Made by a program: the position numbers and the translations under genes | The notes under the pieces: model-generated | The model's input: the letters and a program-made list of their open reading frames with translations, nothing else | The model's database searches: none | Told to the model about the DNA's origin: nothing | In this document: piece by piece, positions 29,761-64,000 of the stretch | Layout of the letters: the number at the start of each line of letters is the position of its first letter | Position numbering within the stretch: position 1 is the stretch's first letter | NCBI GenBank assembly: GCA_964016885.1 | Contig: OZ024743.1 | Span: forward strand, 237,150,001-237,214,000 | From: Eledone cirrhosa | Lineage: Eukaryota | Direction of reading: 5' to 3' | DNA: 64,000 bases

Positions 29761-29946
29761 TGGCAGGTGGATTGGCAGTATCGGTAGAGGGTCGGACGTC
29801 ATGCTTTCCAGCATAGTTACGTCCCTTTACGATCTGAGTTCAAATCCAGCCGAGGTTAACTTTGCCTTTCATCCTTACGGGGTCGATAAAATAAAGTACC
29901 AGTAATGCACTGGGTAATTTCTGGCCTTGTGCTAATAGTAGAAACA
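29761..29946 (+). mobile_element. Full-length tRNA-derived SINE (family A) with target-site duplication
   Basis: A-box-like TGGCAGTATCGG, B-box GAGTTCAAATCC, central GCCTTTCATCCTTACGGGGTCGATAAA domain; ATTATATCTATCGTCATA repeated at 29743-29760 and 29947-29964. Confidence 0.9.
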
Positions 29947-30442
29947 ATTATATCTATCGTCATAGTTGTGTGTGTTGCTATATATATATATATATATATA
30001 TACATATATATACACACATATTAATAACAATAATAATAATAATAATAACGACAATAATAATAACGACAACAACAACAGTAATAATATACATACATACATA
30101 TACACACACACGCACACACATAAACATATCTATACACACACACACACGATAGCAACTAACATCGCTGCGATCGAATGTGGCTTTTTCGCCCAGCCAATGA
30201 TCTAAAATGTCTTGCACAGAGTCGGCAACCAAAACATTCACTGGGAATACATACATACATACATATATCCATATATACATACATATATACATACATACAT
30301 ATATACATATATACATACATATATACATACAAACATATATACATATATATATATAGATAGTGCAAATTTATACGGGGAAAAAAACAGAGAGGCAGACAAA
30401 TAAAGGTTTATTAGGTTCACGCTTTTGGGAGTGGGAGGGAAC

Positions 30443-35344: not shown

Positions 35345-35520
35345 CAGTATCGGTAGACGGTCTGACGCCATTCTTTGCGGCAAAGAGTTACGGCCCTTTA
35401 TGGTTTGAGTTCAAATCCCGCCGAGGTTAACTTTGCCTTTCATCCTTGCGGGGTCGATAAAATAAAGTACCAGTAATACACTGAGATAATTGGTGGCCTT
35501 GTGCCAAAAGTATAAACAAT
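35345..35520 (+). mobile_element. SINE family A copy
   Basis: Homologous to 29761-29946 (GAGTTCAAATCCCGCCGAGG...GGGGTCGATAAAATAAAGTACC). Confidence 0.88.
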
Positions 35521-35532
35521 TATATATATATA

Positions 35533-37563: not shown

Positions 37564-37575
37564 AATTTTGTTTCA

Positions 37576-37695
37576 ATAATAATTGTTTCTACTTTAGGCA
37601 CAAGGCCAGCAATTACTCAGTGCATTACTGGTACTTTATTTTATCGACCCCGTAAGGATGAAAGGCAAAGTTAACCTCGGCGGGATTTGAACTCA
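37576..37695 (-). mobile_element. 3' half of SINE family A (starts at TGAGTTCAAATCC), fused to a Tx1 tail
   Basis: Homology to the full-length copies. Confidence 0.9.
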
Positions 37696-38670
37696 AATAA
37701 TAATAATAATGATTTCATTTATTAGCCACAAGGGCACAGGGACAGTGGGGTTTACAATAAGGTCGAGTATAAGTGCACAATGGCAAGACTAATTTAACAA
37801 TGAAGATATAAAAATATAAAATAAACTATGATTAAATATAACAAAATAAATTCCCCTATAAGGGGTGGATGACCCAGGGGTGACTCGGGTACCCCACCAA
37901 TCCTGAACCACACTGCGCTTCTAAGGCACCCAGGGAGAGCGCCCCTCTCCTCAAGTTAGCTAGCCTATAGGCGCATGGTAAGAGTAGGCCCAATCACACG
38001 AGCTATTCTCGCCACATTCACCCACCTTTTAGCAAATGTACTGGGGGGCAGCACTTCTCTCTCCACCCTCACCTTCCTTTCCAGGTGAAACTTGAAGAGT
38101 TGATGAGGGATTGGCCGAAGAGAAAAGTGTCTGTCTTCAGTCCTTTTAATCTGGTCCACCATATAACCTCTTTCGCAACGGTCACCAGACAGAGGAAAAT
38201 TGCCTGCTCTTCCTGACCTAAGGAAGGTGGCGGGTCGATCTTCACTATGGACTCGGTCGATAGCCGGATCCGTTCCACGCGCAGCAGTAGCTGTTCGACA
38301 TAACTCCACAACTCAGTAATGCACGGACATTGGACAAGTGCGTGCAGAGTAGTTTCGTCGCTCTGTGCGCATCTTGGGCAGGACCGTCTGACAGCACTTC
38401 TGTGCCTGTAGAGTTTATCCCGAACCGGCAGTGCCCTCCGGTAGCACTGCCAAGCGAGGGATTTCTGGAAATTGTCCATCGTCCCCAGCTCGAAAGTCCT
38501 CCGGTACAGACTAGTCAGTTCGACTTCGTCGAGGCCCAAAGCTTCTCCGAGTGCGTCATCACACTTGCCCACCACTAATCCTCTATAGAACTCGAGATTG
38601 GAAGTTCTACTGATCGCATTGCCCACTTGGTAGAGGGCAGTGAGTGCCTGGCAACATTCCAGGTTCCAGT
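37696..38670 (-). mobile_element. 5'-truncated Tx1/L1-clade LINE (second family): ORF2 C-terminus, 3' UTR and (ATT)n tail
   Basis: MDNFQKSLAWQCYR..LPVRDKLY..CPRCAQSDETTLHALVQC zinc-finger region homologous to 57159-60578; 3' end CCCTTGTGGCTAATAAATGAAATC(ATT)n. Confidence 0.9.
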
Positions 38671-38840
38671 AATAATAATTTTGTTTCACGTTTTGCTAAC
38701 TGGAACTTCTTGCTTTGTGTGGTCCGGCTATAACTTCGTTCGCCTCAGAAGTTCTAGATGTCGAACCGGCAAGAGCTCAGCTGCCGGGCTCCAATAGTTT
38801 CTTATATATATATACATATATATATGTGTATATATATATA

Positions 38841-39800: not shown

Positions 39801-40302
39801 ATGATATATATGTGTGTGTGTGTGTGGTGTGTGTGTGTATGTGTGTGTGTGTGTGCGTGTGCGTGCGTGCGTGTGTGTGTGTGGGGGGGGTGTCTCGTTC
39901 TGTGACAGGTGGGAATACTACTATCAGCCAAGATTTCTAGACCGTGACATATGTATTCATACACACACTTCGTTCTTGTTTTCACTCCTCTATTTCTAAC
40001 ATACATCCTGCTGGCTTTTCTAACGACAGTTTTAGCTTCGTATCTCACAATGTTTCATACAAACTATACCAAAATGATCCTAGATAATTCAGTAAATTTG
40101 TTAGTTGATAGAGCAGCAGAGTTTAGATGTGATCCAGTCAACTCTGGTTGAAACGCATATGTCAAAGCTTACGATTGACAGTTAGCTATGACTTGTGTGT
40201 ATTCCTTCTGTGTGAAATTCTGTGTTATACAAATTAATAGTTTTAAACGAAGTCTGTTGTAGTCTGGTTTTCTCTCGTTTTCTGATAGTATTTATACATA
40301 AT

Positions 40303-40490
40303 TGTTTCTACTTTGGGCACAAGGCCAGCAATTATCCCAGTACATTACTGGTACTTTATTTTATCGACCCCGTAAGGATGAAAGGCAAAGTTAACCTTGG
40401 CGGGATTTGAACTCAGATCATAAAGGGACGTAACTCTATGCTTCAAAGCATGGCGTCCGACTCTCTACCGATACTGCCAATCCACCGCCC
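40303..40490 (-). mobile_element. Full-length SINE family A with TSD
   Basis: TAGTAT[TA]TATACATAAT at 40286-40302 and 40492-40508. Confidence 0.9.
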
Positions 40491-45337: not shown

Positions 45338-45349
45338 GGGCAGCGCCGC

Positions 45350-46590: not shown

Positions 46591-47896
46591 TATTTAATAC
46601 AATAACAGAGATAGCTTAAAGCTAAACTCCGACTGGTAACCATCTCACTCAACAAACATTAGGTTATACGTTAGTATAAACCCAATTTAAGTGTTTGGGG
46701 TGCTAACTATATGTATTTTGTGGAAAGCCAGATGTATTATTTTATGAGATATAATTAAAGTTAAAATACATCTCTCTTTCCAAACAATTGTTTCATTATA
46801 AGTTTTTTACAAGTTGGGAGAATGTTTCCAGTTTATGTAGAAGCCTAACATATTTTCATGTAAGAAAATATTTAGGTGGGCACTTATAAATCGTCAGTGG
46901 AAGCCCATTAAACTTTGATATAAGAAAAAATTTCTTACCGCAGTTAATTTTCGTGTCCGTTAAGTTGTCCCTTCACGCATCGAATGACCGCCAAATTTGA
47001 AATTCCAGCAGTCTTTTGACTGAGGAAGTATCATAGCGTCACGAAGCGGAAAAGGGAGACAACCACGAGTCACGAGAAAAGTAAAATAATATACACGTGG
47101 GTTAATTAGTTTTTTCAAAAACATTATCAATCCTGCGTGTTAAGAACTCAATTAATTTAAAAAAAGTAAATGTATGCGTGTATTAATTACACACGCATAT
47201 AGATATTTTCTTAGGCTAAAAACAGAGAAGTGATACCTAAAAACCAACCACATCTCATAACTGTAATCAATACGGAAAGTTACGCTTTAAAAGGCATTTG
47301 GAAATGTAAATCTCTGGCCAAATTAAGAGTAAAATATTTAATACACGCGAGTTAATTAGTTATTTCAAAACCAATATTAATTTCGCGTGTTAAGAACTCA
47401 ATTAATTTAAAAAAATAAATGTATGCATGTAATTATTTACACACGCATATAGATATTTTCTTAGGCTAAAAACAGAGAAGTGATACCCAAAAAAAACAAG
47501 CAATATCTCATAACAGTAATAAATACGGAAAGTCATGTTTATAAGGTACCTGGAAATAAAAATCTCTGGCCAAATCAAGAGTAAAATATTTAATACAATA
47601 ACAGAGATAGCTTAAAGCTAAACTCCGACTGGTAACCATCTCACTCAACAAACATTAGGTTATACGTTAGTATAAACCCAATTTAAGTGTTTGGGTGCTA
47701 ACTATATGTATTTTGTGGAAAGCCAGTTGTGTTATTTTATATGAGATATAATTAAAGTTAAAATACATCTCTCTTTCCAAACAATTGTTTCATTATAAGT
47801 TTTTTACAAGTTGGGAGAATGTTTCCAGTTTATGTAGAAGCCTAACATATTTTCATGTAAGAAAATATTTAGGTGGGCACTTATAAATCGTCAGTG
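46591..47896. repeat. Non-coding unit with ~308-bp terminal direct repeats (46591-46899 / 47587-47896) and an internal ~250-bp tandem duplication (about 47080-47590)
   Basis: Near-identical copies; flanked by (TA)n on both sides. Confidence 0.8.
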
Positions 47897-48110
47897 ATAT
47901 ATATATATATATATATTCAGGTTTGAGGTTCACCACTTGATAGAGATGGTCTATTCCGTATGGTCAATCGTAATGTAATAATATAGAGAGTACTCAACGT
48001 AAAGCAGTTCAACCGTCTTTGTTTTTGTAGTTGGTGGTGCTATTACGGAGTTAAATATTATAATGAAATGACAGGAGGCTGGATTTGTGTAAATCCTTGA
48101 AAGGTTTATT

Positions 48111-48168
48111 ATACTATGATCATTTCAATGACCGGGTTCCGTATGAATCCGGTGATATCATCAGGTAT
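48111..48168 (-). ncRNA. Type I hammerhead ribozyme
   Basis: ATAC-CTGATGA-[stem II ACCGG/CCGGT]-GAAA-TGATCA-TA-GTAT with a palindromic stem III. Confidence 0.7.
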
Positions 48169-50160
48169 TCGAAATATAATACGTGAATGTAATAGATAAA
48201 ATCCATGGGGTTGAAAATCGAGGACCCGAGGGCGATCGCTATCCTGTACCTTCTACCTTAGCCGGTCGCCCTCGAGTGACGTGGCCAAAGCTTACAGTGT
48301 GCTGCTACTACCGGTCAGATAAAGGAAAACAGAAAGGGATGGGAACATAAGTTAGCGTTAATCTCATGCCACAAGACAAAAGAAAGAAAGAAAGGAGGGG
48401 GAGAGAAGAAGGGGGAAGGAAGAAGAGAAGCCAGGGTTAATGTCAGATATAAGAAGAAAGACAGAAAGAAAGAGGAGGAAAGGTCGGTATTACAGTCAGG
48501 CCAGGATTGTCGCGAAAAAAAATTTTTTTTTTTTTTTATTCTACGTGACCCGTATCTAAACAACTACTACCGGTCAGATATAGGCAAACAAAAAGGGGGA
48601 AGGAAGATAAGTCTGCGGGAGGAAGACAGAAAGAGGGGAGAAGAGAAGGAAGAGAATGAAGAAGTAGAAAAGTAAGGGTTGGTGGCTACAAGAAGGAAGA
48701 TAGAAAGAAAGAGGAAGAAAGGTCGTATCAGACTACAGTCAGGCCAGGAGTGGCGCGAGAAAATGTTCACAGGGACCCGTATCTTAGCGGAGATGAATAT
48801 ATTGGGGGTCAGTGTGTTATAATGTGTGAGCAGAATATTGGAACATTACGTTTTTGTTTAGACTTATAGGATGAAATTAAAAATTTATAATTAATATTTA
48901 ATATTAAAGAAATTAGAAAATTTAAAGTTAAACAGCTTAACATTTTAAGGTTGATATATCTAATAGTTATGATTTGATCTGTAATTTAAAGGTACTATGT
49001 GGCGGTTAAAACACCGGCCGCGCTCCGGGCCCCCGGGGCGAATTAAGCCACTCCGAGTAGTTTCATTTACCGAAAGAAGGGGAAATTTATTTTTCCAAGC
49101 ACTCAAGGTAGGCCCATGCGCCAGGGGGCTGGTCGCGCCGCCATCAAAACCCACCCAACAGCCCGACAGAAAGTTGGAACTTTAAAATATTGCTTAAATT
49201 TATAGGATGAAGTTGAAAGAATTCAGAATAACATAAAATTAAAGAGTAAGAAGATTGAGAATTGAACAAACAGAAAATTGAAAATTAAACATTTAAAAAA
49301 ACTTCTATGAGGTTTTGGGTTGCGGGATTTAATTAAAGAGAGTCTTTTATGAAGAAACGCTAATTGTATTATGTAGATCTATAATTTATCCTAGTGGGAT
49401 GTAGAGTACGGGATATAGTCGTGTAATATTTATTTTTGTTCTCAGGGGGAGACATTCTAGTTTCGTGTGCTAATGGGTACAAGTGAGCAAAAGTCCCAAT
49501 AGGAGGAGTAGAAATACATGGATACATAGAAGTGGAATACGTGGAAGAGCACATTGATAAAGAAAAGGTATAAATATATAAACATATCAATATATAGATA
49601 TAAATATGTAAATAAACCAACAAGAGTGGTGTTGGAGTAAGATGGAGAAATCAAGACATAGGAGAATTACAATATAGTTCAGGTTGCAGTATTTATGTTC
49701 CCGGGGGGAGACATTCCAGTGTCGTGTGCTAAGGGTACACGCGAGTAAAAGTCCGAATAAGGGAAGTAAAAAGTACATGGATGTATAGAGGTAGAATAAG
49801 TGGGAAAGCATTAATACAGCAAACAAGAGTCGTTGTCTAGTAAATGGAGAGTTCAAGACACAGGAGAAATACAATATAGTTCAAGTTGCAGTCAGATAAT
49901 GCATATAGATGTGGAAATGGAATCAGTGTGTGTTCGAGTCTGGGAATTCAGTGTGAGTTATACATGCCCAGAAGTATAGGGTAGCGAATTTAGTTAATAC
50001 AGTGCAGTACAATACATGTTATGGTATAATCCGTAGAGTTTCGTCGAAGTCCGAATACTCTGAGAGGGAAGTAGCAATGGGCCAGGCGAAAACACCGAGT
50101 AGCCAAAGTCCGAATGGTGGTTAGATATATTCAGTCCCATGCCGCTGTTCATTATTACAC

Positions 50161-50420
50161 AGGGTCGATAAAATAAAGTACCAGTAATGCACTGGGTAAT
50201 TGCTGGCCTTGTGCCTAAAGTAGAAACAATTATTGGTGGATTGGCAGTATCGGTAGAGGGTCGGACGCCATGCTTTCCAGCATAGTTACGTCCCTTTACG
50301 ATCTGAGTTCAAATCCCGCCGAGGTTGACTTTGCCTTTCATCCTTACGGGGTCGATAAAATAAAGTACCAGTAATGCACTGGGTAATTGCTGGCCTTGTG
50401 CCAAAAGTAGAAACAATTAT
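50161..50420 (+). mobile_element. SINE family A tandem (3' fragment + near full-length copy)
   Basis: Two GGGTCGATAAAATAAAGTACC...GAAACAATTAT units; ATTATTACA on both flanks. Confidence 0.88.
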
Positions 50421-50897
50421 TACATTTTGAAGTGCTCAACATTTCAGGAGCATTATTTATTTGTTTGCCTATATCTGACCGGTAGTAGTTGTTTAGATAC
50501 GGGTCTCGTAGAATAAAAAAAAAATTAAAAAATTAAAAAAAATGTCTTCGCGACAATCCTGGCCTGACTGTAATACCGACCTTTCCTCCTCTTTCTTTCT
50601 GTCTTTCTTCTTATAGCTGACATTAACCCTGGCTTCTCTTCTTCTTCCTTCCCCCTTCTTCTCTCTCCCTCCTTTCTTTCTTTCTTTTGTCTTGTGGCAT
50701 GAGATTAACGCTAACTTATGTTCCCGTCCCTTTCTGTTTTCCTTTATCTGACCGGTAGTAGCAGCACACTGTAAGCTTTGGCCACGTCACTCGAGGGCGA
50801 CCGGCTAAGGTAGAAGGTACAGGATAGCGATCGCCCTCGGGTCCTCGATTTTCAGCCCCATGGATTTTATCTATTACATTCACGTATTATATTTCGA

Positions 50898-50955
50898 ATA
50901 CCTGATGATATCACCGGATTCATACGGAACCCGGTCATTGAAATGATCATAGTAT
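50898..50955 (+). ncRNA. Type I hammerhead ribozyme (inverted copy)
   Basis: Reverse complement of 48111-48168. Confidence 0.7.
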
Positions 50956-51286
50956 AATAAACCTTTCAAGGATTTACACAAATCCAGCCTCCTGTCATTT
51001 CATTATTATATATATATATATATAAATAACAGATTAAAGTTTAAGCAAAGAATCGCTGCTTTGACCCTTAACGGGATCTTATATTAATAATATATATATA
51101 TATTATAAATGATATTACAGTGAAATACTTCACTACTTTCTTTGGTAAGATGAGATAAGTTCGATATACTTTACTGTCCTCTGGAGTAAAACCTGGATAG
51201 TTAAGATACCTTGTTACTAGGTTCAGCTAGCAGAGCATTTAGAATTCAAAATTGTAAGAATGCCAAGGATAAGAAATTATTTATTC

Positions 51287-51338
<52 letters not shown>

Positions 51339-51342
<4 letters not shown>

Positions 51343-51454
51343 TGTTTCTACTTTAGGCACAAGGCCAGCAAATACCCAGTGCATTACTGGTACTTTATTT
51401 TATCGACCCCGTAAGGATGAAAGGCAAAGTTAACCTCGGCGGGATTTGAACTCA

Positions 51455-51455
<1 letters not shown>
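51339..51455 (-). mobile_element. 3' half of SINE family A with long (ATT)n tail, fused to the tail of Tx1 copy A
   Basis: Starts at CTGAGTTCAAATCC on the minus strand; (AAT)n on both sides. Confidence 0.9.
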
Positions 51456-51516
<61 letters not shown>

Positions 51517-51750
51517 TTTTCTTTATTAACCACAAGGGTTCACATAAAGTAGACATTAAGGACAGTACAGGACAATACAGGACGGTACAAATGGGCATTT
51601 CTGCGTGTAAAAAAACAGAGGTTGAAATAAAATAAAGAAAAATTCCCCAATAGGGGGGAGACTTCCAAGGGACATTTGTGGAGAAAGCCCAGTAAAAAGC
51701 CACAATGACCCTGACCACCAAGGCAAGTGCCCTCTCCCAGTTTTCCACCT

Positions 51751-54528
51751 TTAGTTTACTCTGATTTTCCTTTTCAAATGAAATTTGAAAAAGTCAATCA
51801 GAGCATCACCGAAGAGGTAAGTGCTCGTCTTCAGCCCTTTCAAACGTGTCCACCATACTATCTCTTTCACCATGGCCACCAGGCAGATAAAAACTGCCTG
51901 CCCTTCCCGGCTAAAGGAGGAGGGCGGGGCAATCCTCACGATGGACTCAGATGATAGCCGGATCCTCAGCCACGGCATGCCCAGCCCTCCACGTAGCGGG
52001 TGTTGACAACAGATGGACCGCCTGACCATCGGAGCGCGTCCCTTCCACAAAAAGCGAAAGAGCAAACGCTCCAGCGCAGTCAGGCGAGGCTTAGGACAAG
52101 GTACGACGGTCAGACGGTAGCAGATGACGGACGCGATGTACGCGTTAGCCACCTCCGCTCGACCTTTCAGGGATAGCTTCCTCTCCGCCCATTTCTGGGT
52201 GAGAGAAGCCACCCTGCTCGTCACCTCGTCCCAGTTTTTGTCCGTCTGGAGGTCCGGACCGAACCAGACCCCTAGCAATTTAACCGGTCCGTCCGTCCAG
52301 CGTCCGACGACGCTGTTGGACGGCATGGACCTGCCTCTCCAGGTGCCGAGCTGCAGGCCCACTGACTTTTCCTGGTTGATCATTGCTCCTGTCACCGCTT
52401 CGTATTCTCTTAGTGTAGTGCCGATCGCCTCGATGTGTTTGGCGCTCGACACCACTACGGTGACATCGTCCGCATATGCTGACACTGATCTTCCGCATCC
52501 TAGTTCGCGCGGGACTCCCCTCAACGTCTCCAGTTTGTGCAGTAATGGCTCGAGAGTCAATACGTACAAGAGGGACGAGAGGGGACATCCTTGGCGGACC
52601 GAGCGCATGATGTTGAACGGTTCCGACAGGTGACCGTTCACTCTCACCACAGAGCAGATGTCGCTGTGCATGGCAGCGATCCAGCCTCTGAAGACGGGCC
52701 CAAAGCCAGCCGCCCTCAGGACTGCCGCTAGGTAACGATGGTCGACCCTATCGAAAGCTTTCGACTGATCTAAATTGATCAAGGACCCACCCGTGCCAGG
52801 TTCCCTAGCTACCCTCTCTACGATGTATCGCATGAGGTGGAGGTTGTCGTGGATGGATCTGTCGGGAATGGCGCATGTCTGCGCCTCTCCCACCAGACCA
52901 CCAACGACAAGCGCCAACCTCTTTGCTAGCACCTTGGCCAAAATCTTAAACTCTGTGTTTAGCAGAGTTATGGGCCGGAAATTGTCTATGTTATCCCCCT
53001 TGTTCGGATCCTTTCTCAGCAGTGCCACCGCTCCTCGGCTCACAGAACTGGGAATTCTCCCGTTCTGTTGCCAGTTGTAGTAGACGTCCGCCAAGAGGCC
53101 TCCGAACAAGTCTGGCATCTGTACGTAAAGTTCATAGGGCAGACCATCCAAACCAGGCGATTTACCCCTTGTGCAGCCAGTCATTGCCTCCCTTACTTCA
53201 GCGGCTGTTATCGGCTTTTCGCAACACTTCGCCTCAGTGGCCGAGAGCCGCGGCAGTCCGTCGAGGTAGACACTAAAGTCCATCCCTCTACCCGGCCCCC
53301 CGCTGCCCCCGAACAGCTGAGCGAAGTGTCGCTGAAAAGCTTCACACATTTGCCCGGGATCGAGTAGCATGCGCCCGTCGTGGTCCACCAAAGACCGGAT
53401 CGTGGCTTTGTTGCCACGACGCGCCTCCGCCACTCGGGCCCATTGAACGGCTTTCGTCCCCTCGTGTCTGAGAGCACGCACCCTAGCTCTGACAACGCAG
53501 CCTTCGTGCTTTGCATTGAAGAATTGGTCAAGGGCCAATTTCGCCGCAAGCACGTCGGTCGCAATGCCTTTGCTAAGCGCCTCGTCTAATTTTTTAACTA
53601 GTTCTCCCTCTGCTCTATTTTTCTCTATTGCTAAAGCCTTACTAAACCTAATCGATTCTATTCTAATCGCTCTTTTCAGAGCAAACCACCACTTGTTGTT
53701 GACGATGGCCCCCGTCAACGCCCGCTTAACTAGTTCGCTAATTCGGTCTCTGTAGGCCTTGCGCGCTGGTAAGGACGCGTTTAGCTTCCAGTAGCCGGGT
53801 CCTCGTCTATGAAGCCTATCTAAGTCAAGCACACAGGTCACGAATTTGTGGTCCGTGTAGCTGACTATCTTGAATTGTGGACAGCCTATGCTAGACCTAT
53901 CTATTTCCCTACAAAATACTCTATCTAGATATGATCTGGATGACCCTATGCGGTTTGTCCAAGTCCACATTGGCACATTCGGGAAATCCAATCGGTACCT
54001 GTCAGACAGTTCAAAACGCCTGAGCAGGTTGGTGAGGCTCTTGCACCCTCCACCCCTATCCGCTAATCCCACACAGTCCCAGCGTGCATCTAAGATCCCG
54101 TTCCAGTCGCCCACTAACACTAAAGAGCGGGACGTTCCAAGAAAGGTCTCCAGACGCCGGAAGAAATCAGGCCGCCCTGCTCCTGTCGGGGCATAGACGG
54201 CCACTAGCCTGAAAGCTTGCCCGTCTCCGCTGGTCACGTCCAGCACCACCAGCTTACCCTCTGGGTCCAGGAAGATGGCCCGTATGGCGAGATCCAAACC
54301 TCTCCGAAAAAGCACAGCAACTCCTCCACCCGATCCAGGACGGCTGGGAGATGCGTACACATCGTAGCCGCCGAAGATCGGTGCGAAGGCCCGTGCTTCG
54401 GAGATTCTGGTCTCGCTGATGGCCACTACATCTATGTTTAGTGACCTGAGGTCGTTGAGCAGGTGACCCTGCTTCCATGACGACCCCAAGCCACGCGCAT
54501 TTATGCTGCCTATTCTGAGTGAGGTCAT
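51751..54528 (-). CDS. ORF2: APE endonuclease + RT, C-terminal zinc finger deleted
   Basis: SINARGL, ISET, GDWN, SYLDRV, TDH; KSPGLDG, FRPITLLN, LDQSKAFDRV, RQGCPLS, AYADD. Confidence 0.93.
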   Translation of the reverse strand: MTSLRIGSINARGLGSSWKQGHLLNDLRSLNIDVVAISETRISEARAFAPIFGGYDVYASPSRPGSGGGVAVLFRRGLDLAIRAIFLDPEGKLVVLDVTSGDGQAFRLVAVYAPTGAGRPDFFRRLETFLGTSRSLVLVGDWNGILDARWDCVGLADRGGGCKSLTNLLRRFELSDRYRLDFPNVPMWTWTNRIGSSRSYLDRVFCREIDRSSIGCPQFKIVSYTDHKFVTCVLDLDRLHRRGPGYWKLNASLPARKAYRDRISELVKRALTGAIVNNKWWFALKRAIRIESIRFSKALAIEKNRAEGELVKKLDEALSKGIATDVLAAKLALDQFFNAKHEGCVVRARVRALRHEGTKAVQWARVAEARRGNKATIRSLVDHDGRMLLDPGQMCEAFQRHFAQLFGGSGGPGRGMDFSVYLDGLPRLSATEAKCCEKPITAAEVREAMTGCTRGKSPGLDGLPYELYVQMPDLFGGLLADVYYNWQQNGRIPSSVSRGAVALLRKDPNKGDNIDNFRPITLLNTEFKILAKVLAKRLALVVGGLVGEAQTCAIPDRSIHDNLHLMRYIVERVAREPGTGGSLINLDQSKAFDRVDHRYLAAVLRAAGFGPVFRGWIAAMHSDICSVVRVNGHLSEPFNIMRSVRQGCPLSSLLYVLTLEPLLHKLETLRGVPRELGCGRSVSAYADDVTVVVSSAKHIEAIGTTLREYEAVTGAMINQEKSVGLQLGTWRGRSMPSNSVVGRWTDGPVKLLGVWFGPDLQTDKNWDEVTSRVASLTQKWAERKLSLKGRAEVANAYIASVICYRLTVVPCPKPRLTALERLLFRFLWKGRAPMVRRSICCQHPLRGGLGMPWLRIRLSSESIVRIAPPSSFSREGQAVFICLVAMVKEIVWWTRLKGLKTSTYLFGDALIDFFKFHLKRKIRVN

Positions 54529-54563
54529 GTTTAAAATAGAGTGGAAAAGATGGGAAAGACCAC

Positions 54564-56642
54564 TTACCGTACTTTTGGTAGAGGAGGGATGGTTTTTACA
54601 TCCCTTTTCACTTGATCGTCTGGTGAAGGGACCGTTGAATCGTCCCTTCGGCTGGTCGTCGGCTCTTCTAAGAGAATGTCTGAGTATACTCTTCGATTGA
54701 TGGTTCCTCCTAGGTCCCTGAAATCACCAACTGCGTTGGGGAATTTCGTTTTAATGTTTGTGTATTGTTTCTGTGCTATTTTTAGCAGTCTTATGTTAGT
54801 TGGCGTTTTGATTGGTGCTGGTATTATGTAGTCCTGTTGTGAAATGTCTGTGTGTTCAATTATGTAAGTCATTAGTTTCTTGTTGTGTGTATTTATTGCC
54901 GTGCATTTGTTTTTCTGGGGGTGGGGTGTGGTTCTACTATTTTCTTGTCGTTGTTGCTGGGTGTGTGTGTTTTGTTGTTGTGTTTGCGATGTTGGTGCTT
55001 GTGGTGGTGGTGTTAAAGGTGTTGTTGGCGGTGGTGATGGTGGTGCTAGTGTGGGTGGTGATGGTGTTGGTGTTGTTGCTGCTGTGGGTCTCTTTGCAGT
55101 AGACTTTACCCTTTTCTCATTTCTTTCCTCCCTTTTCAAAGGCGACGATGCGCTGCTTCTGCGTTTGTGCCTTCTTACGACCTTTTGCCATCCCTCTCCC
55201 ACCTCACACTCCATGTCTGATTCTGTGAGGTCGGGGAGGGGTACCAGCTCCACTCTTTCACTTGTTGTTGGTGATGTTTGCACTGGAGTCTCTGTTGCAG
55301 CTGCATTTGGTATTGCTGTTGTTGTTGTTAATATTTCCACTGCTGCTGCTGTTTTTGATTTCCGTGGAGTGGGTATGGGTGCCACGGACCTATCGTTCCT
55401 GGTTGCCGCTTGTCCTGTTGCTGGTAGCCGTGGAGCCGGATTCGGAAGGAGGGGGGTTTTCTCCTTTCTCAGGGTCTTCTCGTTGCAGAAGGCCCTGAGG
55501 TGAGTCTTCGATCCACAGCGAAAGCATTTCGGGCGTTTGCCCTCAACACTTATGGACAGTTGAGTGCCGTTATCGAAGTCTATCACATCCGGGATAGCTT
55601 CGATGCACTCCTGGTTGGTTTGGATTAGCATCTCAATGGAGGAGCCGACCCAATCTTCTCTTACTTTTTTCTGTACTTGCAGTACAGTTGTTTTGTCCTC
55701 GATTCCGACGAGGACAGACGCGGCCAGCCAAGAAGGGGTCATTCCGGGGGGGACGTGGGTTAGTTTGACCCTCACAATTTTTTGCCCACAGTAGGAGGGC
55801 ACCAACACCATTTCCTCGCTCCTTAGGGTCACTACTGATTGGGCCTTTGCCTCCTGGGGTGTGGCAAAAAGTACGTCTACGGTGGCATATTTTTTGCCTC
55901 GGGTGATGTGCGTTTTCCGCTGCCACACAGACCCCAAGGCTTTTTGTATTTGGGCCTCTGTGGCTCTTTCCACCCTACGGGATTTTGTACTTACTGTACG
56001 GTACGTGGCCGTACAGTGCTCTTGGGTTTCGAAAAATTTTTCCGCTGCCTTGCAGATTGCTCGGTGTCCGTTCTTTGTAACCATCTTCTTCGCTTCCTCT
56101 AATTCCTCATTTGTTATGAGGATTGTTTCCAAGTTTTTCGCAATACCTGCAAATGAGATTGGTTTTTCTCTGCTGTTGTTGTTGTCGTCAGAGCTGCTGG
56201 TACTTTTGTTGTTGCTGCAGGTACTACGACTACTGCCTCCGCCGCTGTTGCTGTGGTTGTTGTTGGTGTTGCTGCTGCTAATGCTGTTGTTGTTTATGCT
56301 GCTGGTGATGCTGTTGCGGCTGCTACTGTTGTTTTCATTGTCACTGTTGCTGTTGTTATTACGGCTGCTACTGCTATTATTCCTGACGTCAGACGAATGA
56401 ACTGGGTTTTCGTATTTCCCGCACACCTGTTTCGTCGCTGTCGTCGTCGTCGTGGAGAAACTTTGCACGCTTTGCACGAGACTTTTCTTTTCTTTCGTCA
56501 CTTGCGAAAGAGAAGGGAGGGAGAGAGACACATTTAAAGAAGGGAGGGAGAGAGACAATCTTCTCTCTGCTGTAGTGATGATTGAGGAAGAAGAAGACGG
56601 AATGAGTGGGAGTGACGTATGAAATTTCTTTTTCGTAGCCAT
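54564..56642 (-). CDS. ORF1: nucleic-acid-binding protein with CCHC knuckle and low-complexity N/S and P/T tracts
   Basis: CFRCGSKTHLRAFC; lies upstream of ORF2; conserved in copy B. Confidence 0.9.
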   Translation of the reverse strand: MATKKKFHTSLPLIPSSSSSIITTAERRLSLSLPSLNVSLSLPSLSQVTKEKKSLVQSVQSFSTTTTTATKQVCGKYENPVHSSDVRNNSSSSRNNNSNSDNENNSSSRNSITSSINNNSISSSNTNNNHSNSGGGSSRSTCSNNKSTSSSDDNNNSREKPISFAGIAKNLETILITNEELEEAKKMVTKNGHRAICKAAEKFFETQEHCTATYRTVSTKSRRVERATEAQIQKALGSVWQRKTHITRGKKYATVDVLFATPQEAKAQSVVTLRSEEMVLVPSYCGQKIVRVKLTHVPPGMTPSWLAASVLVGIEDKTTVLQVQKKVREDWVGSSIEMLIQTNQECIEAIPDVIDFDNGTQLSISVEGKRPKCFRCGSKTHLRAFCNEKTLRKEKTPLLPNPAPRLPATGQAATRNDRSVAPIPTPRKSKTAAAVEILTTTTAIPNAAATETPVQTSPTTSERVELVPLPDLTESDMECEVGEGWQKVVRRHKRRSSASSPLKREERNEKRVKSTAKRPTAATTPTPSPPTLAPPSPPPTTPLTPPPQAPTSQTQQQNTHTQQQRQENSRTTPHPQKNKCTAINTHNKKLMTYIIEHTDISQQDYIIPAPIKTPTNIRLLKIAQKQYTNIKTKFPNAVGDFRDLGGTINRRVYSDILLEEPTTSRRDDSTVPSPDDQVKRDVKTIPPLPKVR

Positions 56643-56857
56643 GTTGTTTTTTTGTTTAAAATGAATATTGGGTACAAAACCCCAATAACTGGTTATTTAG
56701 CCCCGAAGGGCCAAATAACGGACAGAAAGACCCCTCTCACGAGGAGGAGGGTGTCTTTATCAACAATTTGGTTCAAGTTTTAAACAATTTACAATTGTTT
56801 TAACGGTTAAAAATTACTATACCTTACAGAGCCGAGCCTCCGTCAACCATGGCATTC

Positions 56858-56898
<41 letters not shown>

Positions 56899-57158
56899 TT
56901 TCTTTATTAACCACAAGGGTTTACATAAAGTAGACATTAAGGACAGTGCAGGACAATGCAGGACGGTACAAATGGGCATTTCTGCGTGTAAAAAAACAAA
57001 AACAGAGGATGTAACAAAAATAACAATGAAAATAACAATGAAAAATTCCCCAATAGGGGGGAGACTTCAGAGGGACATTTGTGGAGAAAGCCCAGTAAAA
57101 AGCCACAATGACCCTGACCACCAAGGCAAGTGCCCTCTCCCAGTTTTCCACCTTTAGT

Positions 57159-60100
57159 TTACAGATATATACTCAGAGTCGGCCCATTCACTCGGGCCAT
57201 TCTTGCTTCTCTCACCCATCTTTCAACAAAATGCTGGGAAGAGAGCACTTCCTTCTCTACTCTGATTTTCCTTTTCAAATGAAATTTGAAAAAGTCAATC
57301 AGAGCATCACCGAAGAGGTAAGTGCTCGTCTTCAGCCCTTTCAAACGTGTCCACCATACTATCTCTTTCGCCATGGCCACCAGACAGATAAAAACTGCCT
57401 GCCCTTCCCGGCTAAAGGAGGAGGGCGGGGCAATCCTCACGATAGACTCAGATGATAGCTGGATCCGTCCTAAACGCGACAGCAGGTGTTCGACATAAAC
57501 CCACAAGTCAGCAATTTTCGGACACTGGACGAGTGCGTGCAGGACGGTTTCGTCGCCCTGCGCGCATCTCGGACATGCCCGGCTGACGGCACCTCCATGC
57601 CTGTAGAGTTTATCCCGAACTGGCAAGGCTCCTCGGTAGCACTGCCAGGCCAGAGATTTCTGGAAGTTGTCCATAGGCCCTGGCCCGAAAGTTCTTCCGA
57701 AGAGATTGGCTAGTTGATTTTCGTCGACGCCTAGAGTTTCCCCAAGTACGTCGTCGCTCTTCCCCTCCACTAATCCTCTATAGAACGCCGAGGTGGAGTT
57801 TCCACCGATCACATTGCCCGATTGGTCGAGGGCTGTGAGCGCCTGAAGACATTCCAGTCTCCAGGCGCTCCCTCTCGGTCTTCGCTTGACCCAGGACTGC
57901 AGCTCCGTCAAGGAAACGAGCTGGGGAAAAACGCGTCTAGCAAACGGCGACCACACCTGATCACCGTCGAGGAAGAGGTGGAGATGTCGTAGCCTGAGCG
58001 CGTGCCTGCGCATCATCAGCCACGGCATGCCCAGCCCTCCACGTAGCGGGTGTTGACAACAGATGGACCGCCTGACCATCGGAGCACGTCCCTTCCACAA
58101 AAAGCGAAAGAGCAAACGCTCCAGCGCAGTCAGGCGAGGCTTAGGACAAGGTACGACGGTTAGGCGGTAGCAGATGACAGACGCGATGTACGCGTTAGCC
58201 ACCTCCGCTCGACCTTTCAGGGATAGCTTCCTCTCCGCCCATTTCTGGGTGAGAGAAGCCACCCTGCTCGTCACCTCGTCCCAGTTTTTGTCCGTCTGGA
58301 GGTCCGGACCGAACCAGACCCCTAGCAATTTAACCGGTCCGTCCGTCCAGCGCCCGACGACGCTGTTGGACGGCATGGACCTGCCTCTCCAGGTGCCGAG
58401 CTGCAGGCCCACTGACTTTTCCTGGTTGATCATTGCTCCTGTCACCGCTTCGTATTCTCTTAGTGTAGTGCCGATCGCCTCGATGTGTTTGGCGTTCGAC
58501 ACCACTACGGTGACATCGTCCGCATATGCTGACACGGATCTTCCGCATCCTAGTTCGCGCGGGACCCCCCTCAACGTCTCCAGTTTGTGCAGTAATGGCT
58601 CGAGAGTCAATACGTACAAGAGGGACGAGAGGGGACATCCTTGGCGGACCGAGCGCATGATGTTGAACGGTTCCGACAGGTGACCGTTCACTCTCACCAC
58701 AGAGCAGATGTCGCTGTGCATGGCAGCGATCCAGCCTCTGAAGACGGGCCCAAAGCCAGCCGCCCTCAGGACTGCCGCTAGGTAACGATGGTCGACCCTA
58801 TCGAAAGCTTTCGACTGATCTAAATTGATCAAGGACCCACCCGTGCCAGGTTCCCTAGCTACCCTCTCTACGATGTATCGCATGAGGTGGAGGTTGTCGT
58901 GGATGGATCTGTCGGGAATGGCGCATGTCTGCGCCTCTCCCACCAGACCACCAACGACAAGCGCCAACCTCTTTGCTAGCACCTTGGCCAAAATCTTAAA
59001 CTCTGTGTTTAGCAGAGTTATGGGCCGGAAATTGTCTATGTTATCCCCCTTGTTCGGATCCTTTCTCAGCAGTGCCACCGCTCCTCGGCTCACAGAACTG
59101 GGAATTCTCCCGTTCTGTTGCCAGTTGCAGTAGACGTCCGCCAAGAGGCCTCCGAACAAGTCTGGCATCTGTACGTAAAGTTCATAGGGCAGACCATCCA
59201 AACCAGGCGATTTACCCCTTGTGCAGCCAGTCATTGCCTCCCGTACTTCAGCGGCTGTTATCGGCTTTTCGCAACACCTCGCCTCAGTGGCCGAGAGCCG
59301 CGGCAGTCCGTCGAGGTAGACACTAAAGTCCATCCCTCTACCCGGCCCCCCGCTGCCCCCGAACAGCTGAGCGAAGTGTCGCTGAAAAGCTTCACACATT
59401 TGCCCGGGATCGAGTAGCATGCGCCCGTCGTGGTCCACCAAAGACCGGATCGTGGCTTTGTTGCCACGACGCGCCTCCGCCACTCGGGCCCATTGAACGG
59501 CTTTCGTCCCCTCGTGTCTGAGAGCACGCACCCTAGCTCTGACAACGCAGCCTTCGTGCTTTGCATTGAAGAATTGGTCAAGGGCCAATTTCGCCGCAAG
59601 CACGTCGGTCGCAATGCCTTTGCTAAGCGCCTCGTATAATTTTCTAACTAGTTCTCCCTCTGCTCTATTTTTCTCTATTGCTAAAGCCTTACTAAACCTA
59701 ATCGATTCTATTCTAATCGCTCTTTTCAGAGCAAACCACCACTTGTTGTTGACGATGGCCCCCGTCAACGCCCGCTTAACTAGTTCGCTAATCCGGTCTC
59801 TGTAGGCCTTGCGCGCTGGTAAGGACGCGTTTAGCTTCCAGTAGCCGGGTCCTCGTCTATGAAGCCTATCTAAGTCAATCACACAGGTCACGAATTTGTG
59901 GTCCGTGTAGCTGACTATCTTGAATTGTGGACAGCCTATGCTAGACCTATCTATTTCCCTACAAAATACTCTATCTAGATATGATCTGGATGACCCTATG
60001 CGGTTTGTCCAAGTCCACATTGGCACATTCGGGAAATCCAATCGGTACCTGTCAGACAGTTCAAAACGCCTGAGCAGGTTGGTGAGGCTCTTGCACCCTC

Positions 60101-60578
60101 CACCCCTATCCGCTAATCCCACACAGTCCCAGCGTGCATCTAAGATCCCGTTCCAGTCGCCCACTAACACTAAAGAGCGGGACGTTCCAAGAAAGGTCTC
60201 CAGACGCCGGAAGAAATCAGGCCGCCCTGCTCCTGTCGGGGCATAGACGGCCACTAGCCTGAAAGCTTGCCCGTCTCCGCTGGTCACGTCCAGCACCACC
60301 AGCTTACCCTCTGGGTCCAGGAAGATGGCCCGTATGGCGAGATCCAAACCTCTCCGAAAAAGCACAGCAACTCCTCCACCCGATCCAGGACGGCTGGGAG
60401 ATGCGTACACATCGTAGCCGCCGAAGATTGGTGCGAAGGCCCGTGCTTCGGAGATTCTGGTCTCGCTGATGGCCACTACATCTATGTTTAGTGACCTGAG
60501 GTCGTTGAGCAGGTGACCCTGCTTCCATGACGACCCCAAGCCACGCGCATTTATGCTGCCTATTCTGAGTGAGGTCAT
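57159..60578 (-). CDS. ORF2: APE endonuclease + RT + C-terminal CCHC zinc finger (1139 aa)
   Basis: As copy A plus GGLGMP and CPRCAQGDETVLHALVQC. Confidence 0.96.
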   Translation of the reverse strand: MTSLRIGSINARGLGSSWKQGHLLNDLRSLNIDVVAISETRISEARAFAPIFGGYDVYASPSRPGSGGGVAVLFRRGLDLAIRAIFLDPEGKLVVLDVTSGDGQAFRLVAVYAPTGAGRPDFFRRLETFLGTSRSLVLVGDWNGILDARWDCVGLADRGGGCKSLTNLLRRFELSDRYRLDFPNVPMWTWTNRIGSSRSYLDRVFCREIDRSSIGCPQFKIVSYTDHKFVTCVIDLDRLHRRGPGYWKLNASLPARKAYRDRISELVKRALTGAIVNNKWWFALKRAIRIESIRFSKALAIEKNRAEGELVRKLYEALSKGIATDVLAAKLALDQFFNAKHEGCVVRARVRALRHEGTKAVQWARVAEARRGNKATIRSLVDHDGRMLLDPGQMCEAFQRHFAQLFGGSGGPGRGMDFSVYLDGLPRLSATEARCCEKPITAAEVREAMTGCTRGKSPGLDGLPYELYVQMPDLFGGLLADVYCNWQQNGRIPSSVSRGAVALLRKDPNKGDNIDNFRPITLLNTEFKILAKVLAKRLALVVGGLVGEAQTCAIPDRSIHDNLHLMRYIVERVAREPGTGGSLINLDQSKAFDRVDHRYLAAVLRAAGFGPVFRGWIAAMHSDICSVVRVNGHLSEPFNIMRSVRQGCPLSSLLYVLTLEPLLHKLETLRGVPRELGCGRSVSAYADDVTVVVSNAKHIEAIGTTLREYEAVTGAMINQEKSVGLQLGTWRGRSMPSNSVVGRWTDGPVKLLGVWFGPDLQTDKNWDEVTSRVASLTQKWAERKLSLKGRAEVANAYIASVICYRLTVVPCPKPRLTALERLLFRFLWKGRAPMVRRSICCQHPLRGGLGMPWLMMRRHALRLRHLHLFLDGDQVWSPFARRVFPQLVSLTELQSWVKRRPRGSAWRLECLQALTALDQSGNVIGGNSTSAFYRGLVEGKSDDVLGETLGVDENQLANLFGRTFGPGPMDNFQKSLAWQCYRGALPVRDKLYRHGGAVSRACPRCAQGDETVLHALVQCPKIADLWVYVEHLLSRLGRIQLSSESIVRIAPPSSFSREGQAVFICLVAMAKEIVWWTRLKGLKTSTYLFGDALIDFFKFHLKRKIRVEKEVLSSQHFVERWVREARMARVNGPTLSIYL

Positions 60579-60613
60579 GTTTAAAATAGAGTCGAAAAGA
60601 TGGGAAAGACCAC

Positions 60614-62710
60614 TTACCGTACTTTTGGTAGAGGAGGGATGGTTTTTACATCCCTTTTCACTTGATCGTCTGGTGAAGGGACCGTTGAATCGTCCCTTCG
60701 GCTGGTCGTCGGCTCTTCTAAGAGAATGTCTGAATATACTCTTCGATTGATGATTCCTCCTAGGTCCCTGAAATCACCAACTGCGTTGGGGAATTTCGTT
60801 TTAATGTTTGTGTATTGTTTCTGTGCTATTTTTAGCAGTCTTATGTTAGTTGGCGTTTTGATTGGTGCTGGTATTATGTAGTCCTGTTGTGAAATGTCTG
60901 TGTGTTCAATTATGTAAGTCATTAGTTTCTTGTTGTGTGTGTTTATTGCCGTGCATTTGTTTTTCTGGGGGTGGGGTGTGGTTCTGCTATTTTCTTGTCG
61001 TTGTTGCTGGGTGTGTGTGTTTTGTTGTTGTGTTTGCGATGTTGGTGCTTGTGGTGGTGGTGTTGAAGGTGTTGTTGGCGGTGGGGTTGTCGCCGGTGGT
61101 GATGGTGGTGCTGGTGTGGGTGGTGATGGTGTTGGTGGTGTTGCTGCTGTGGGTCTCTTTGCAGTAGACTTTACCCTTTTCTCATTTCTTTCCTCCCTTT
61201 TCAAAGGCGACGATGCGCTGCTTCTGCGTTTGTGCCTTCTTGCGACCTTTTGCCATCCCTCTCCCACCTCACACTCCATGTCTGATTCTGTAAGGTCGGG
61301 GAGGGGTACCAGCTCCACTCTTTCACTTGTTGTTGTTGGTGATGTTTGCACTGGAGTCTCTGTTGCAGCTGCATTTGGTATTGCTGTTGTTGTTGTTAAT
61401 ATTTCCACTGCTGCTGCTGTCTTTGATTTCCGTGGAGTGGGTATGGGTGCCACGGACCTATCGTTCCTGGTTGCCGCTTGTCCTGTTGCTGGTAGCCGTG
61501 GAGCCGGATTCGGAAGGAGGGGGGTTTTCTCCTTTCTCAGGGTCTTCTCGTTGCAGAAGGCCCTGAGGTGAGTCTTCGATCCACAGCGAAAGCATTTCGG
61601 GCGTTTGCCCTCAACACTTATGGGCAGTTGAGTGCCGTTATCGAAGTCTATCACATCCGGGATAGCTTCGATGCACTCCTGGTTGGTTTGGATTAGCATC
61701 TCAATGGAGGAGCCGACCCAATCTTCTCTTACTTTTTTCTGTACTTGCAGTACAGTTGTTTTGTCCTCGATTCCGATTAGGACAGACGCGGCCAGCCAAG
61801 AAGGGGTCATTCCGGGGGGGACGTGGGTCAGTTTGACCCTCACAATTTTTTGCCCACAGTAGGAGGGCACCAACACCATTTCCTCGCTCCTTAGGGTCAC
61901 TACTGATTGGGCCTTTGCCTCCTGGGGTGTGGCAAAAAGTACGTCTACGGTGGCATATTTTTTGCCTCGGGTGATGTGCGTTTTCCGCTGCCACACAGAC
62001 CCTAAGGCTTTTTGTATTTGGGCCTCTGTGGCTCTTTCCACCCTACGGGATTTTGTACTTACTGTACGGTACGTGACCGTACAGTGCTCTTGGGTTTCGA
62101 AAAAATTTTTCGCTGCCTTGCAGATTGCTCGGTGTCCGTTCTTTGTCACCATCTTCTTCGCTTCCTCTAATTCCTCATTTGTTATGAGGATTGTTTCCAA
62201 GTTTTTCGCAATACCTGCAAATGAGATTGGTTTTTCTCTGCTGTTGTTGTTGTCGTCAGAGCTGCTGGTACTTTTGTTGTTGCTGCAGGTACTACGACTA
62301 CTGCCTCCGCCGCTGTTGCTGTGGTTGTTGTTGGTGTTGCTGCTGCTAATGCTGTTGTTGTTTATGCTGCTGGTGATGCTGTTGCGGCTGCTACTGTTGT
62401 TTTCATTGTCACTGTTGCTGTTGTTATTACGGCTGCTACTGCTATTATTCCTGACGTCAGACGAATGAACTGGGTTTTCGTATTTCCCGCACACCTGTTT
62501 CGTCGCTGTCGTCGTCGTCGTGGAGAAACCTTGCACGCTTTGCACGAGACTTTTCTTTTCTTTCGTCACTTGCGAAAGAGAAGGGAGGGAGAGAGACACA
62601 TTTAAAGAAGGGAGGGAGAGAGACAATCTTCTCTCTGCTGTAGTGATGATTGAGGAAGAAGAAGACGGAATGAGTGGGAGTGACGTATGAAATTTCTTTT
62701 TCGTAGCCAT
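60614..62710 (-). CDS. ORF1 (698 aa)
   Basis: Nearly identical to 54564-56642. Confidence 0.92.
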   Translation of the reverse strand: MATKKKFHTSLPLIPSSSSSIITTAERRLSLSLPSLNVSLSLPSLSQVTKEKKSLVQSVQGFSTTTTTATKQVCGKYENPVHSSDVRNNSSSSRNNNSNSDNENNSSSRNSITSSINNNSISSSNTNNNHSNSGGGSSRSTCSNNKSTSSSDDNNNSREKPISFAGIAKNLETILITNEELEEAKKMVTKNGHRAICKAAKNFFETQEHCTVTYRTVSTKSRRVERATEAQIQKALGSVWQRKTHITRGKKYATVDVLFATPQEAKAQSVVTLRSEEMVLVPSYCGQKIVRVKLTHVPPGMTPSWLAASVLIGIEDKTTVLQVQKKVREDWVGSSIEMLIQTNQECIEAIPDVIDFDNGTQLPISVEGKRPKCFRCGSKTHLRAFCNEKTLRKEKTPLLPNPAPRLPATGQAATRNDRSVAPIPTPRKSKTAAAVEILTTTTAIPNAAATETPVQTSPTTTSERVELVPLPDLTESDMECEVGEGWQKVARRHKRRSSASSPLKREERNEKRVKSTAKRPTAATPPTPSPPTPAPPSPPATTPPPTTPSTPPPQAPTSQTQQQNTHTQQQRQENSRTTPHPQKNKCTAINTHNKKLMTYIIEHTDISQQDYIIPAPIKTPTNIRLLKIAQKQYTNIKTKFPNAVGDFRDLGGIINRRVYSDILLEEPTTSRRDDSTVPSPDDQVKRDVKTIPPLPKVR

Positions 62711-62925
62711 GTTGTTTTTTGTTTAAAATGAAATTTTGGGTACAAAACCCCAATAACTGGTTATTTAACCCCGAAGGGCCAAATAACGGACAGAAAGACC
62801 CCTCTCACGAGGAGGAGGGTGTCTTTATCAACAATTTGGTTCAAGTTTTAAACAATTTACAATTGTTTTAACGGTTAAAAATTACTATACCTTACAGAGC
62901 CGAGCCTCCGTCAACCATGGCATTC

Positions 62926-62963
<38 letters not shown>

Positions 62964-64000
62964 TTTCTTTATTAACCACAAGGGTTTACATAAAGTAGAC
63001 ATTAAGGACAGTGCAGGACAATGCAGGACGGTACAAATGGGCATTTCTGCGTGTAAAAAAAACAAAAACAGAGGATGTAACAAAAATAACAATGAAAATA
63101 ACAATGAAAAATTCCCCAATAGGGGGGAGACTTCGGAGGGACATTTGTGGAGAAAGCCCAGTAAAAAGCCACAATGACCCTGACCACCAAGGCAAGTGCC
63201 CTCTCCCAGTTTTCCACCTTTAGTTTACAGATATATACTCAGAGTCGGCCCATTCACTCGGGCCATTCTTGCTTCTCTCACCCATCTTTCAACAAAATGC
63301 TGGGAAGAGAGCACTTCCCTCTCTACTCTGATTTTCCTTTTCAAATGAAATTTGAAAAAGTCAATCAGAGCATCACCGAAGAGGTAAGTGCTCGTCTTCA
63401 GCCCTTTCAAACGTGTCCACCATACTATCTCTTTCGCCATGGCCACCAGACAGATAAAAACTGCCTGCCCTTCCCGGCTAAAGGAGGAGGGCGGGGCAAT
63501 CCTCACGATGGACTCAGATGATAGCTGGATCCGTCCTAAACGCGACAGCAGGTGTTCGACATAAACCCACAAGTCAGCAATTTTCGGACACTGGACGAGT
63601 GCGTGCAGGACGGTTTCGTCGCCCTGTGCGCATCTCGGACATGCCCGGCTGACGGCACCTCCATGCCTGTAGAGTTTATCCCGAACTGGCAAGGCTCCTC
63701 GGTAGCACTGCCAGGCCAGAGATTTCTGGAAGTTGTCCATAGGCGCTGGCCCGAAAGTTCTTCCGAAGAGATTGGCTAGTTGATTTTCGTCGACGCCTAG
63801 AGTTTCCCCAAGTACGTCGTCGCTCTTCCCCTCCACTAATCCTCTATAGAAAGCCGAGGTGGAGTTTCCACCGATCACATTGCCCGATTGGTCGAGGGCT
63901 GTGAGCGCCTGAAGACATTCCAGTCTCCAGGCGCTCCCTCTCGGTCTTCGCTTGACCCAGGACTGCAGCTCCGTCAAGGAAACGAGCTGGGGAAAAACGC
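62926..64000 (-). mobile_element. Tx1/L1-clade LINE copy C (3' portion; continues beyond the window)
   Basis: Nearly identical to the 3' 1.07 kb of copy B, including the ORF2 C-terminus at 63225-63977. Confidence 0.95.

Follow-up and report, generated by a model that had tools for sequence, protein, structure and literature searches.

The window analysed in this study is a 64,000-nucleotide stretch of the genome of Eledone cirrhosa (contig OZ024743.1, positions 237,150,001 to 237,214,000). A LINE designated Tx1-A forms a head-to-tail array on the minus strand from 51456 to beyond 64000, and its units differ from one another by 0.7-1.2%. Unit 2 (56897..62925) is apparently intact, with an ORF1 frame that contains one CCHC knuckle (60614-62722) and an ORF2 frame with APE endonuclease, reverse transcriptase (RT) and zf-RVT domains (57159-60773). 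Its (ATT)13 tail (56858..56896) contains no SINE sequence and directly adjoins the 5' end of unit 1 (51516..56857), which begins as unit 2 does, has two internal deletions relative to it (approximately 549 and 98 bp) and carries an ORF2 without a zf-RVT match. The shorter deletion shows 3-nt microhomology. The 3' part of unit 3 (62962..64000), 99.3% identical to unit 2 and continuing past the window end, directly adjoins the 5' end of unit 2 through an (ATT)12 tail (62926..62961). Neither SINE sequence nor a SINE-derived target duplication was found between units at the two array junctions. Unit 1 ends in an (ATT)20 tail (51456..51515), which is followed on the same strand by the 3' half of a SINE (51343..51455) that starts 2 nt before the B-box and lacks the A-box, and then by an (ATT)18 run (51289..51342) consisting of the SINE tail, possibly together with a target duplication.

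The ORF2 of unit 2 matches PF03372, PF00078 and PF13966, and its best relative of solved structure is LINE-1 ORF2p (E 3.5e-52), with R2 at 1e-21. The ORF1 frame (702 aa) has a CCHC motif; it gave no match in the Pfam search and no hit in the homologue search; as a lead only, zf-CCHC proteins make up the Atlas clusters closest to it (0.90-0.93). Judged from the sequence, the combination of an APE endonuclease, an RT, a C-terminal zinc domain and a separate zinc-knuckle ORF1 is that of an L1/Tx1-group LINE. The narrower Tx1 label is putative, as it comes from the single named match among eight homologues (Stylophora 'Transposon TX1 149 kDa protein', 32%, E 3e-87). No locus related to ORF2 was found in the viral contigs scanned. 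Horizontal transfer, considered on account of the spread of Tx1-A words across many organisms, was set aside, since trace DNA accounts for this spread.

A second LINE, Tx1-B, lies in a composite at 37.6 kb, also on the minus strand. It is a 5'-truncated element comprising the ORF2 C-terminus (zf-RVT, with one frameshift) and the 3' UTR (37711..38669), with an (ATT)5 tail (37696..37710). This tail is followed by a SINE 3' half with a short ATT tail (37576..37695), which has two variants in common with the solitary SINE copy at 35345. Together, the Tx1-B fragment and the SINE half are flanked by the two copies of a 12-bp direct repeat: the downstream copy is at 37564..37575, and the upstream copy (38677-38688) lies with 7 nt of ATT filler in 38670..38688, where the SINE 5' half is lacking. 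The repeat occurs only at 37564 and 38677 within 26.3-64 kb. The probability of its occurring by chance is about 4e-4 by composition, a somewhat optimistic value because a few bases of the repeat overlap neighbouring repeats, and among 19,910 random windows no more than 31 match it. As an alternative reading, there is a 9-bp ATT duplication within an older small duplication, which likewise encloses Tx1-B and the SINE half. The SINE 5' half is absent upstream of Tx1-B, and its only matches in the window are at four other SINE loci. Directly adjoining the 12-bp repeat on the plus strand is the 3' fragment of another LINE, ending in (GAA)33 (37032-37565), with no RT Pfam match; it is putatively RTE-like by motif.

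The rest of the window is also rich in repeats. A 36-bp minisatellite at 1-25175, strongly GC-skewed and present in about 699 copies at 95% matches, accounts for the long open frames in that region; beyond it, (ATGT)n and then a 64-bp tandem array extend to 26235. Two RT-bearing elements in opposite orientation, at 27371-29172 (minus) and 31627-33416 (plus), are 70.6% identical, with a weak RVT_1 match on the first; both are presumably Penelope-like, again by motif. An apparently young LTR retrotransposon-like element (42196-46448) has 304-bp direct repeats that are 99.7% identical and a 961-aa frame with protease, DUF7047, RVT_3 and integrase matches and no RVT_1 match. Inverted repeats of 555 bp (95.9%) at 48052-48592 and 50460-51014 surround about 1.9 kb that includes a SINE dimer, in a foldback or DNA-transposon-like arrangement. 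The remaining features are direct repeats of 310 bp (98.4%; 46590-47896) and 179 bp (97.8%; 36147-36944) and a 735-bp (GGT)n array (40769-41503).

SINE copies, insertion sites and the common 3' end

Four other SINE insertions are present in the window. Two are full copies: one at 29763..29951 (plus) with an 18-bp target duplication, and one at 40298..40489 (minus) with a duplication of approximately 17 bp (10 bp exact, then one mismatch). The copy at 35345..35523 (plus) lacks about 14 nt at its 5' end and has a duplication of about 16 bp. The fourth is a head-to-tail dimer at 50159..50420 (plus) of a 5'-truncated and a near-full copy, with a 9-bp duplication; here a SINE stands behind a two-unit tail. 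All four duplications start at TC/ATTAT (the slash marks the boundary), and about 10% of background ATTAT sites follow TC (p ~1e-4, with one site read by eye). That site is at 35345, where microsatellite and filler intervene, and it is the least secure of the four. The 3' ends of three of the four Tx1 copies read TC/ATTATT, the exception being unit 1 with AC/ATT; the SINE itself ends CA/ATT, not TC/ATT. The outer site of Tx1-B, ACG/TGAA, does not fit TC/ATTAT. Occupancy of the other TCATTAT sites is 4 of 13, and no element follows any of five unrelated (ATT)3+ runs or either of two such SINE tails. On the sense strand, TGA lies 0-2 nt after every element-associated ATT run (37575, 51288, 56857, 62925, 51455 and 37695), counting the last T of the run where needed; this is possibly a second site preference.

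The SINE has the features of the tRNA type, namely A- and B-box-like motifs, a length of about 190 bp, a repeat tail, target duplications and a high copy number. The box assignments follow the usual consensus; candidate families are MetaSINE or the octopus OK/OR SINEs, and the SINE would fit an octopus host. Neither ARAGORN nor Rfam found a tRNA, and the Rfam matches were all under the gathering score and nearly all in microsatellites. A central stretch of 26-33 nt recurs in six metagenome contigs (L001-L006) with differing heads and tails and no Tx1 match, as expected for a conserved SINE domain. We regard these six loci as uninformative on the junctions, since only these 26-33 nt are in common with the SINE. 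The SINE pattern had no match in the viral contigs or the prokaryote genomes scanned, and the junction pattern had none in the metagenomes scanned.

Both the SINE and the Tx1 elements terminate in a similar motif of about 24 nt followed by (ATT)n. When the last 26 nt of the SINE were compared with those of Tx1-A and Tx1-B, an equal or higher score was obtained in 14 and 10 of 20,000 shuffles, respectively. The predicted folds of the 3' ends were not significant (z 0.04, -1.14 and -0.18), and the motifs have no significant fold in common. The terminal likeness and the TC/ATTAT sites suggest that the SINE is probably mobilised by these Tx1 proteins. A Dong-type or other LINE could be its partner instead; Dong elements use TAA repeats as target (PMC3812793), and their activity in Octopus vulgaris has been reported (PMC13282606). 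No tRNA-SINE/Tx1 tail pair was found in the literature searched, which was thin in subscription papers, and the present elements are a candidate for an animal tRNA-SINE/Tx1 pair with a common tail.

Junctions between Tx1 tails and SINE pieces

On the minus strand, the join at 51455 reads (ATT)20 followed directly by CTGAGTTC, and the join at 37695 reads (ATT)5 followed by TGAGTTC. Downstream of both are the 3' 113-120 bp of the SINE, and the B-box-like motif GAGTTCAAATCC begins 1-2 nt 3' of the joins. The two joins are 0-1 base apart and may be at exactly one SINE base, because the tail and the SINE have T's in common. The sequence-only reading, which had placed two different Tx1 families against the same SINE just upstream of its B-box, was thus correct as to the junctions. 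It was also correct as to the families: Tx1-A and Tx1-B are 75.7% identical at the nucleotide level across 692 bp of ORF2 and 60-67% identical in amino acids, and their 3' UTRs can be aligned solely over a 17-nt terminal piece. The SINE halves at 51455 and 37695 are different variants, each with 1-2 differences from the window consensus.

The coincidence of two breakpoints no more than 1 nt apart has a probability of about 0.02 if breakpoints are uniform, and of about 0.05 if only positions offering 2 nt or more of ATT microhomology are allowed. Within the window, SINE pieces start at the shared base in two of two Tx1-adjacent cases versus none of five others (Fisher p=0.048); when only truncated SINE pieces are compared, the counts are two of two versus none of two (p=0.33). 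The shared breakpoint is suggestive, as a post hoc observation on two junctions. Of the four Tx1 tails in the window, two adjoin a SINE and two (56858 and 62926), which the sequence-only reading left out of its comparison, adjoin the 5' end of the next Tx1. A simpler possibility had been that solitary SINEs are commonly cut at this base and enter any (AAT)n; it holds in that the other copies insert at ATTAT sites, and fails in that none of the five others in the window is cut at the shared base.

Reads or contigs from 4 of 24 listed public sequencing runs were placed on 37566-38795, and only one of these (X1) was informative. The two raw Hi-C runs gave 6 and 13 placed reads, none of them on the SINE, and a further run (X4) gave 34 contigs; no RNA run was among those listed as matching. 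In X1, with at least 163,882 contigs, Tx1-B was present in all bins and the SINE had approximately 40-400 times the summed depth of Tx1-B. The summed depth of the SINE, 0.9-1.9e7 versus 6-11 for the unique flank, is not a copy number. The top loose-end class listed comprises 4,725 contigs at 37695 whose consensus is the SINE 5' half (agreement 0.58), and therefore most copies continue intact at this point. A SINE subfamily with another 3' part is suggested by loose ends at 37614-37627.

Thirteen of the 15 joints listed for X1, out of 763, consist of a SINE tail followed by a SINE piece, with no Tx1. Those listed start from 37614, 37638, 37652, 37669-72, 37693 and 37695, with 3 nt of microhomology at 37652 and 1-2 nt at 37670/37672, at sites predicted as ATT-like. 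Thus a tail can be joined to a truncated SINE with no Tx1 involved, and the positions of such joins are many. The largest class listed, 161 contigs at 37695, was considered as proof of a fixed truncation and rejected as ambiguous, because the SINE 5' half is outside the stretch, the letters between are not known and intact dimers would pile up there too. Among the rows listed for X1, no loose end or bridging piece was at the Tx1 tail. A joint at 37640 between a SINE tail and a SINE, with 9 letters between, has a depth of 8000, which suggests an amplified dimeric SINE subfamily.

Origin of the junctions

We tentatively place first the explanation that the SINE inserted later into the (ATT)n tails of the Tx1 elements and lost its head at the 5' joining; with two cases at hand, we consider its chances slightly less than even. 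In such a process, the Tx1 endonuclease would nick the opposite strand at ATAAT/GA and the exposed ATAAT would pair with the (AUU)n tail of the RNA. Each Tx1 tail would then be a fresh target, at which either a SINE or a further Tx1 could insert, the latter producing the head-to-tail array. As the upstream flank would itself be (ATT)n, the SINE 5' join would fall at an (ATT)n-like stretch just before CTGAG, at the inner-helix edge of a predicted head hairpin, where reverse transcription may pause. The lack of a SINE 5' half before Tx1-B, the 12-bp repeat around the composite, TC/ATTAT at four of four sites, the common 3' motif, the SINE-SINE joints in X1 and the SINE-free array junctions all argue for this explanation.

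The choice of this particular base was considered from the side of microhomology and from that of the fold. An ATT-like stretch, TTAYGAT or TTATGGTT, is immediately 5' of CTGAG. Four SINE copies were scanned for resemblance to (ATT)n: in two of them the 8 nt that precede the break score highest (6 of 8), and in the remaining two they tie for first place at 5 of 8. For L1, the joining of truncated 5' ends by microhomology is an established model (PMC2912911). The exact microhomology at both junctions is just 1-3 T's, and sites with longer exact ATT matches (-5/-4, +24, +43 and +85) are unused. The SINE head is predicted to form a long hairpin, with the break in its 3' arm at the edge of an inner 11-bp helix (z=-2.45 and -1.74 for two heads of 96-100 nt; z=-1.28 for the whole SINE). 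A canonical T-arm hairpin is not formed in the predicted folds, so that the T-arm once proposed as a fixed template-switch point drops out, and the idea of a switch survives in modified form at the longer head hairpin. As accounts of the breakpoint, the microhomology and the modelled hairpin are both post hoc.

Some observations count against insertion into tails. The exact overlap is short while longer sites are unused, all four Tx1 tails are occupied, which is above the expectation from 4 of 13 TCATTAT sites, and the outer site of Tx1-B is a misfit. No common fold is significant, and another LINE could be the partner. Furthermore, unit 1 ends AC/ATT and so requires an earlier upstream unit as its target, and the SINE ends CA/ATT, so that SINE-SINE joints require relaxed cutting.

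It is also possible, though on the unlikely side, that each composite was made in one step: the RT would start on SINE RNA, stall at the head hairpin and jump to a Tx1 RNA at its (AUU)n 3' end. Jumps of this kind would also yield the SINE dimers and, perhaps, the array of Tx1 units. The single direct repeat around each full composite (Tx1-B with its SINE, and the dimer at 50159-50420) fits this view, although sequential insertion into tails predicts an enclosing repeat equally. The direct neighbour at all four tails, the ATT filler at the 5' join of Tx1-B and the break at the border of the 11-bp inner helix predicted for the head are also in line with it, and template jumping has been proposed for R2 and L1 (excerpts of PMC2912911). 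However, an internal stall and jump would be needed rather than an end-to-end jump, and to produce several full-length units of 6 kb in one event is demanding; the units are 0.7-1.2% apart, and unit 1 is more damaged. Whether insertion was sequential or by a one-step jump, both explanations attribute the stacks to joining guided by (ATT)n rather than to cleavage of the SINE.

The sequence-only reading had proposed, as one of two possibilities, a Tx1 lineage that targets the B-box region of the SINE. This is disfavoured by the lack of a SINE 5' half upstream, the 12-bp repeat around both pieces and the lack of target duplications at either array junction, and we consider it improbable. In its present form, Tx1 would cut just before the B-box, and the 37.6-kb copy would be an off-target 3' transduction in which transcription ran on into the SINE half and priming was from the tail of the SINE. 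In its favour, both LINE families adjoin one base, each in a different variant of the SINE, and none of five other pieces starts there. Tx1 families that hit other transposons (PMC4494074) also speak for it, as does a weak 4-nt match, ACG/T, between the SINE site (majority X1 variant) and the outer 37.6-kb site. However, there is no SINE 5' half at the sole testable 5' end, where the 12-bp repeat encloses both pieces, and targeting therefore needs the off-target transduction, despite a very abundant SINE that offers the proper site. The array junctions also contain no sandwiched SINE duplication, and the site is unlike TC/ATTAT. It is correspondingly doubtful that an old Tx1 lineage lands in a hyper-abundant tRNA SINE, that the SINE borrows the 3' recognition tail of this lineage and that the LINE thereby inactivates its own parasite as it inserts, taking the SINE 3' half along by transduction.

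Least likely of all is plain coincidence, or that SINEs entered the tails at full length and their heads were later deleted, from (ATT)n to the ATT-like stretch. The post hoc probability of 0.02-0.05 and the internal deletions of unit 1, one with 3-nt microhomology, would allow it, but two independent deletions at one base would be required in SINE halves that are young. The pattern at the two junctions is real, and it probably arose as a side effect when a SINE/Tx1 pair inserted under the guidance of its tails.

Relation to known systems

The background on target-specific Tx1 elements that underlay the targeting proposal holds. In the excerpts of PMC4494074, Tx1L, Keno, Kibi, Koshi and Tx1-Mar have two ORFs with APE, RT and a C-terminal zinc domain, as here; Kibi and Koshi have microsatellite targets, whereas the apparent site here is TC/ATTAT or the element's own (ATT)n tail. 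A SINE as the target of Tx1 was not found in the parts of PMC4494074, PMC8869645 or PMC2861651 at hand, nor was a SINE-targeting Tx1 in the literature searched, thin as it was in subscription papers. The specificity criterion in PMC4494074, as excerpted, is the recurrence of one target in over 20% of flanks; two of four Tx1 tails are followed by a SINE here, a count from the window only. If SINE targeting were true, the known target classes of Tx1 endonucleases would gain a new one, and LINE and SINE would be in direct conflict.

The crocodilian SINEU and Tx1-Mar, as described in excerpts of PMC4494074, resemble the present case in that the SINE was inferred to use Tx1 machinery from a common insertion preference and in that tandem insertions occur. 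They differ in that no LINE with the 3' end of SINEU-1 was found there, whereas a tRNA-type head is combined here with a 3' motif in common with a LINE. The tandems of SINEU-3, which is target-specific, also sandwich the target duplication, whereas the junctions of the Tx1-A array do not. In known SINE/LINE pairs with common tails (excerpts of PMC3747384, PMC4824008 and PMC11481361), the terminal sequence and the terminal repeat are in common, as they are here. The partners in these excerpts are CR1, L2, RTE, Nimb and plant or algal L1, and the motif found here is short (about 24 nt) and its fold unsupported; all five mentions of Tx1 in PMC3747384 belong to phylogeny, with no SINE pair. The microhomology at 5' joins is alike in the truncations excerpted from PMC2912911 and in our junctions.

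The reading that we prefer, insertion into ATT tails, has a counterpart in poly(A)-tailed elements. On this reading, a single rule, a tail that recreates its own target, would explain LINE arrays, SINE dimers and LINE-SINE stacks together, an account that is neat but ordinary. Retroposons that insert into the tails of older ones are familiar from the poly(A) tails of Alu and L1. The two situations are alike in that the tail recreates the priming sequence and gives head-to-tail stacks, and unlike in that the repeat here is ATT and two joins fall at one base.
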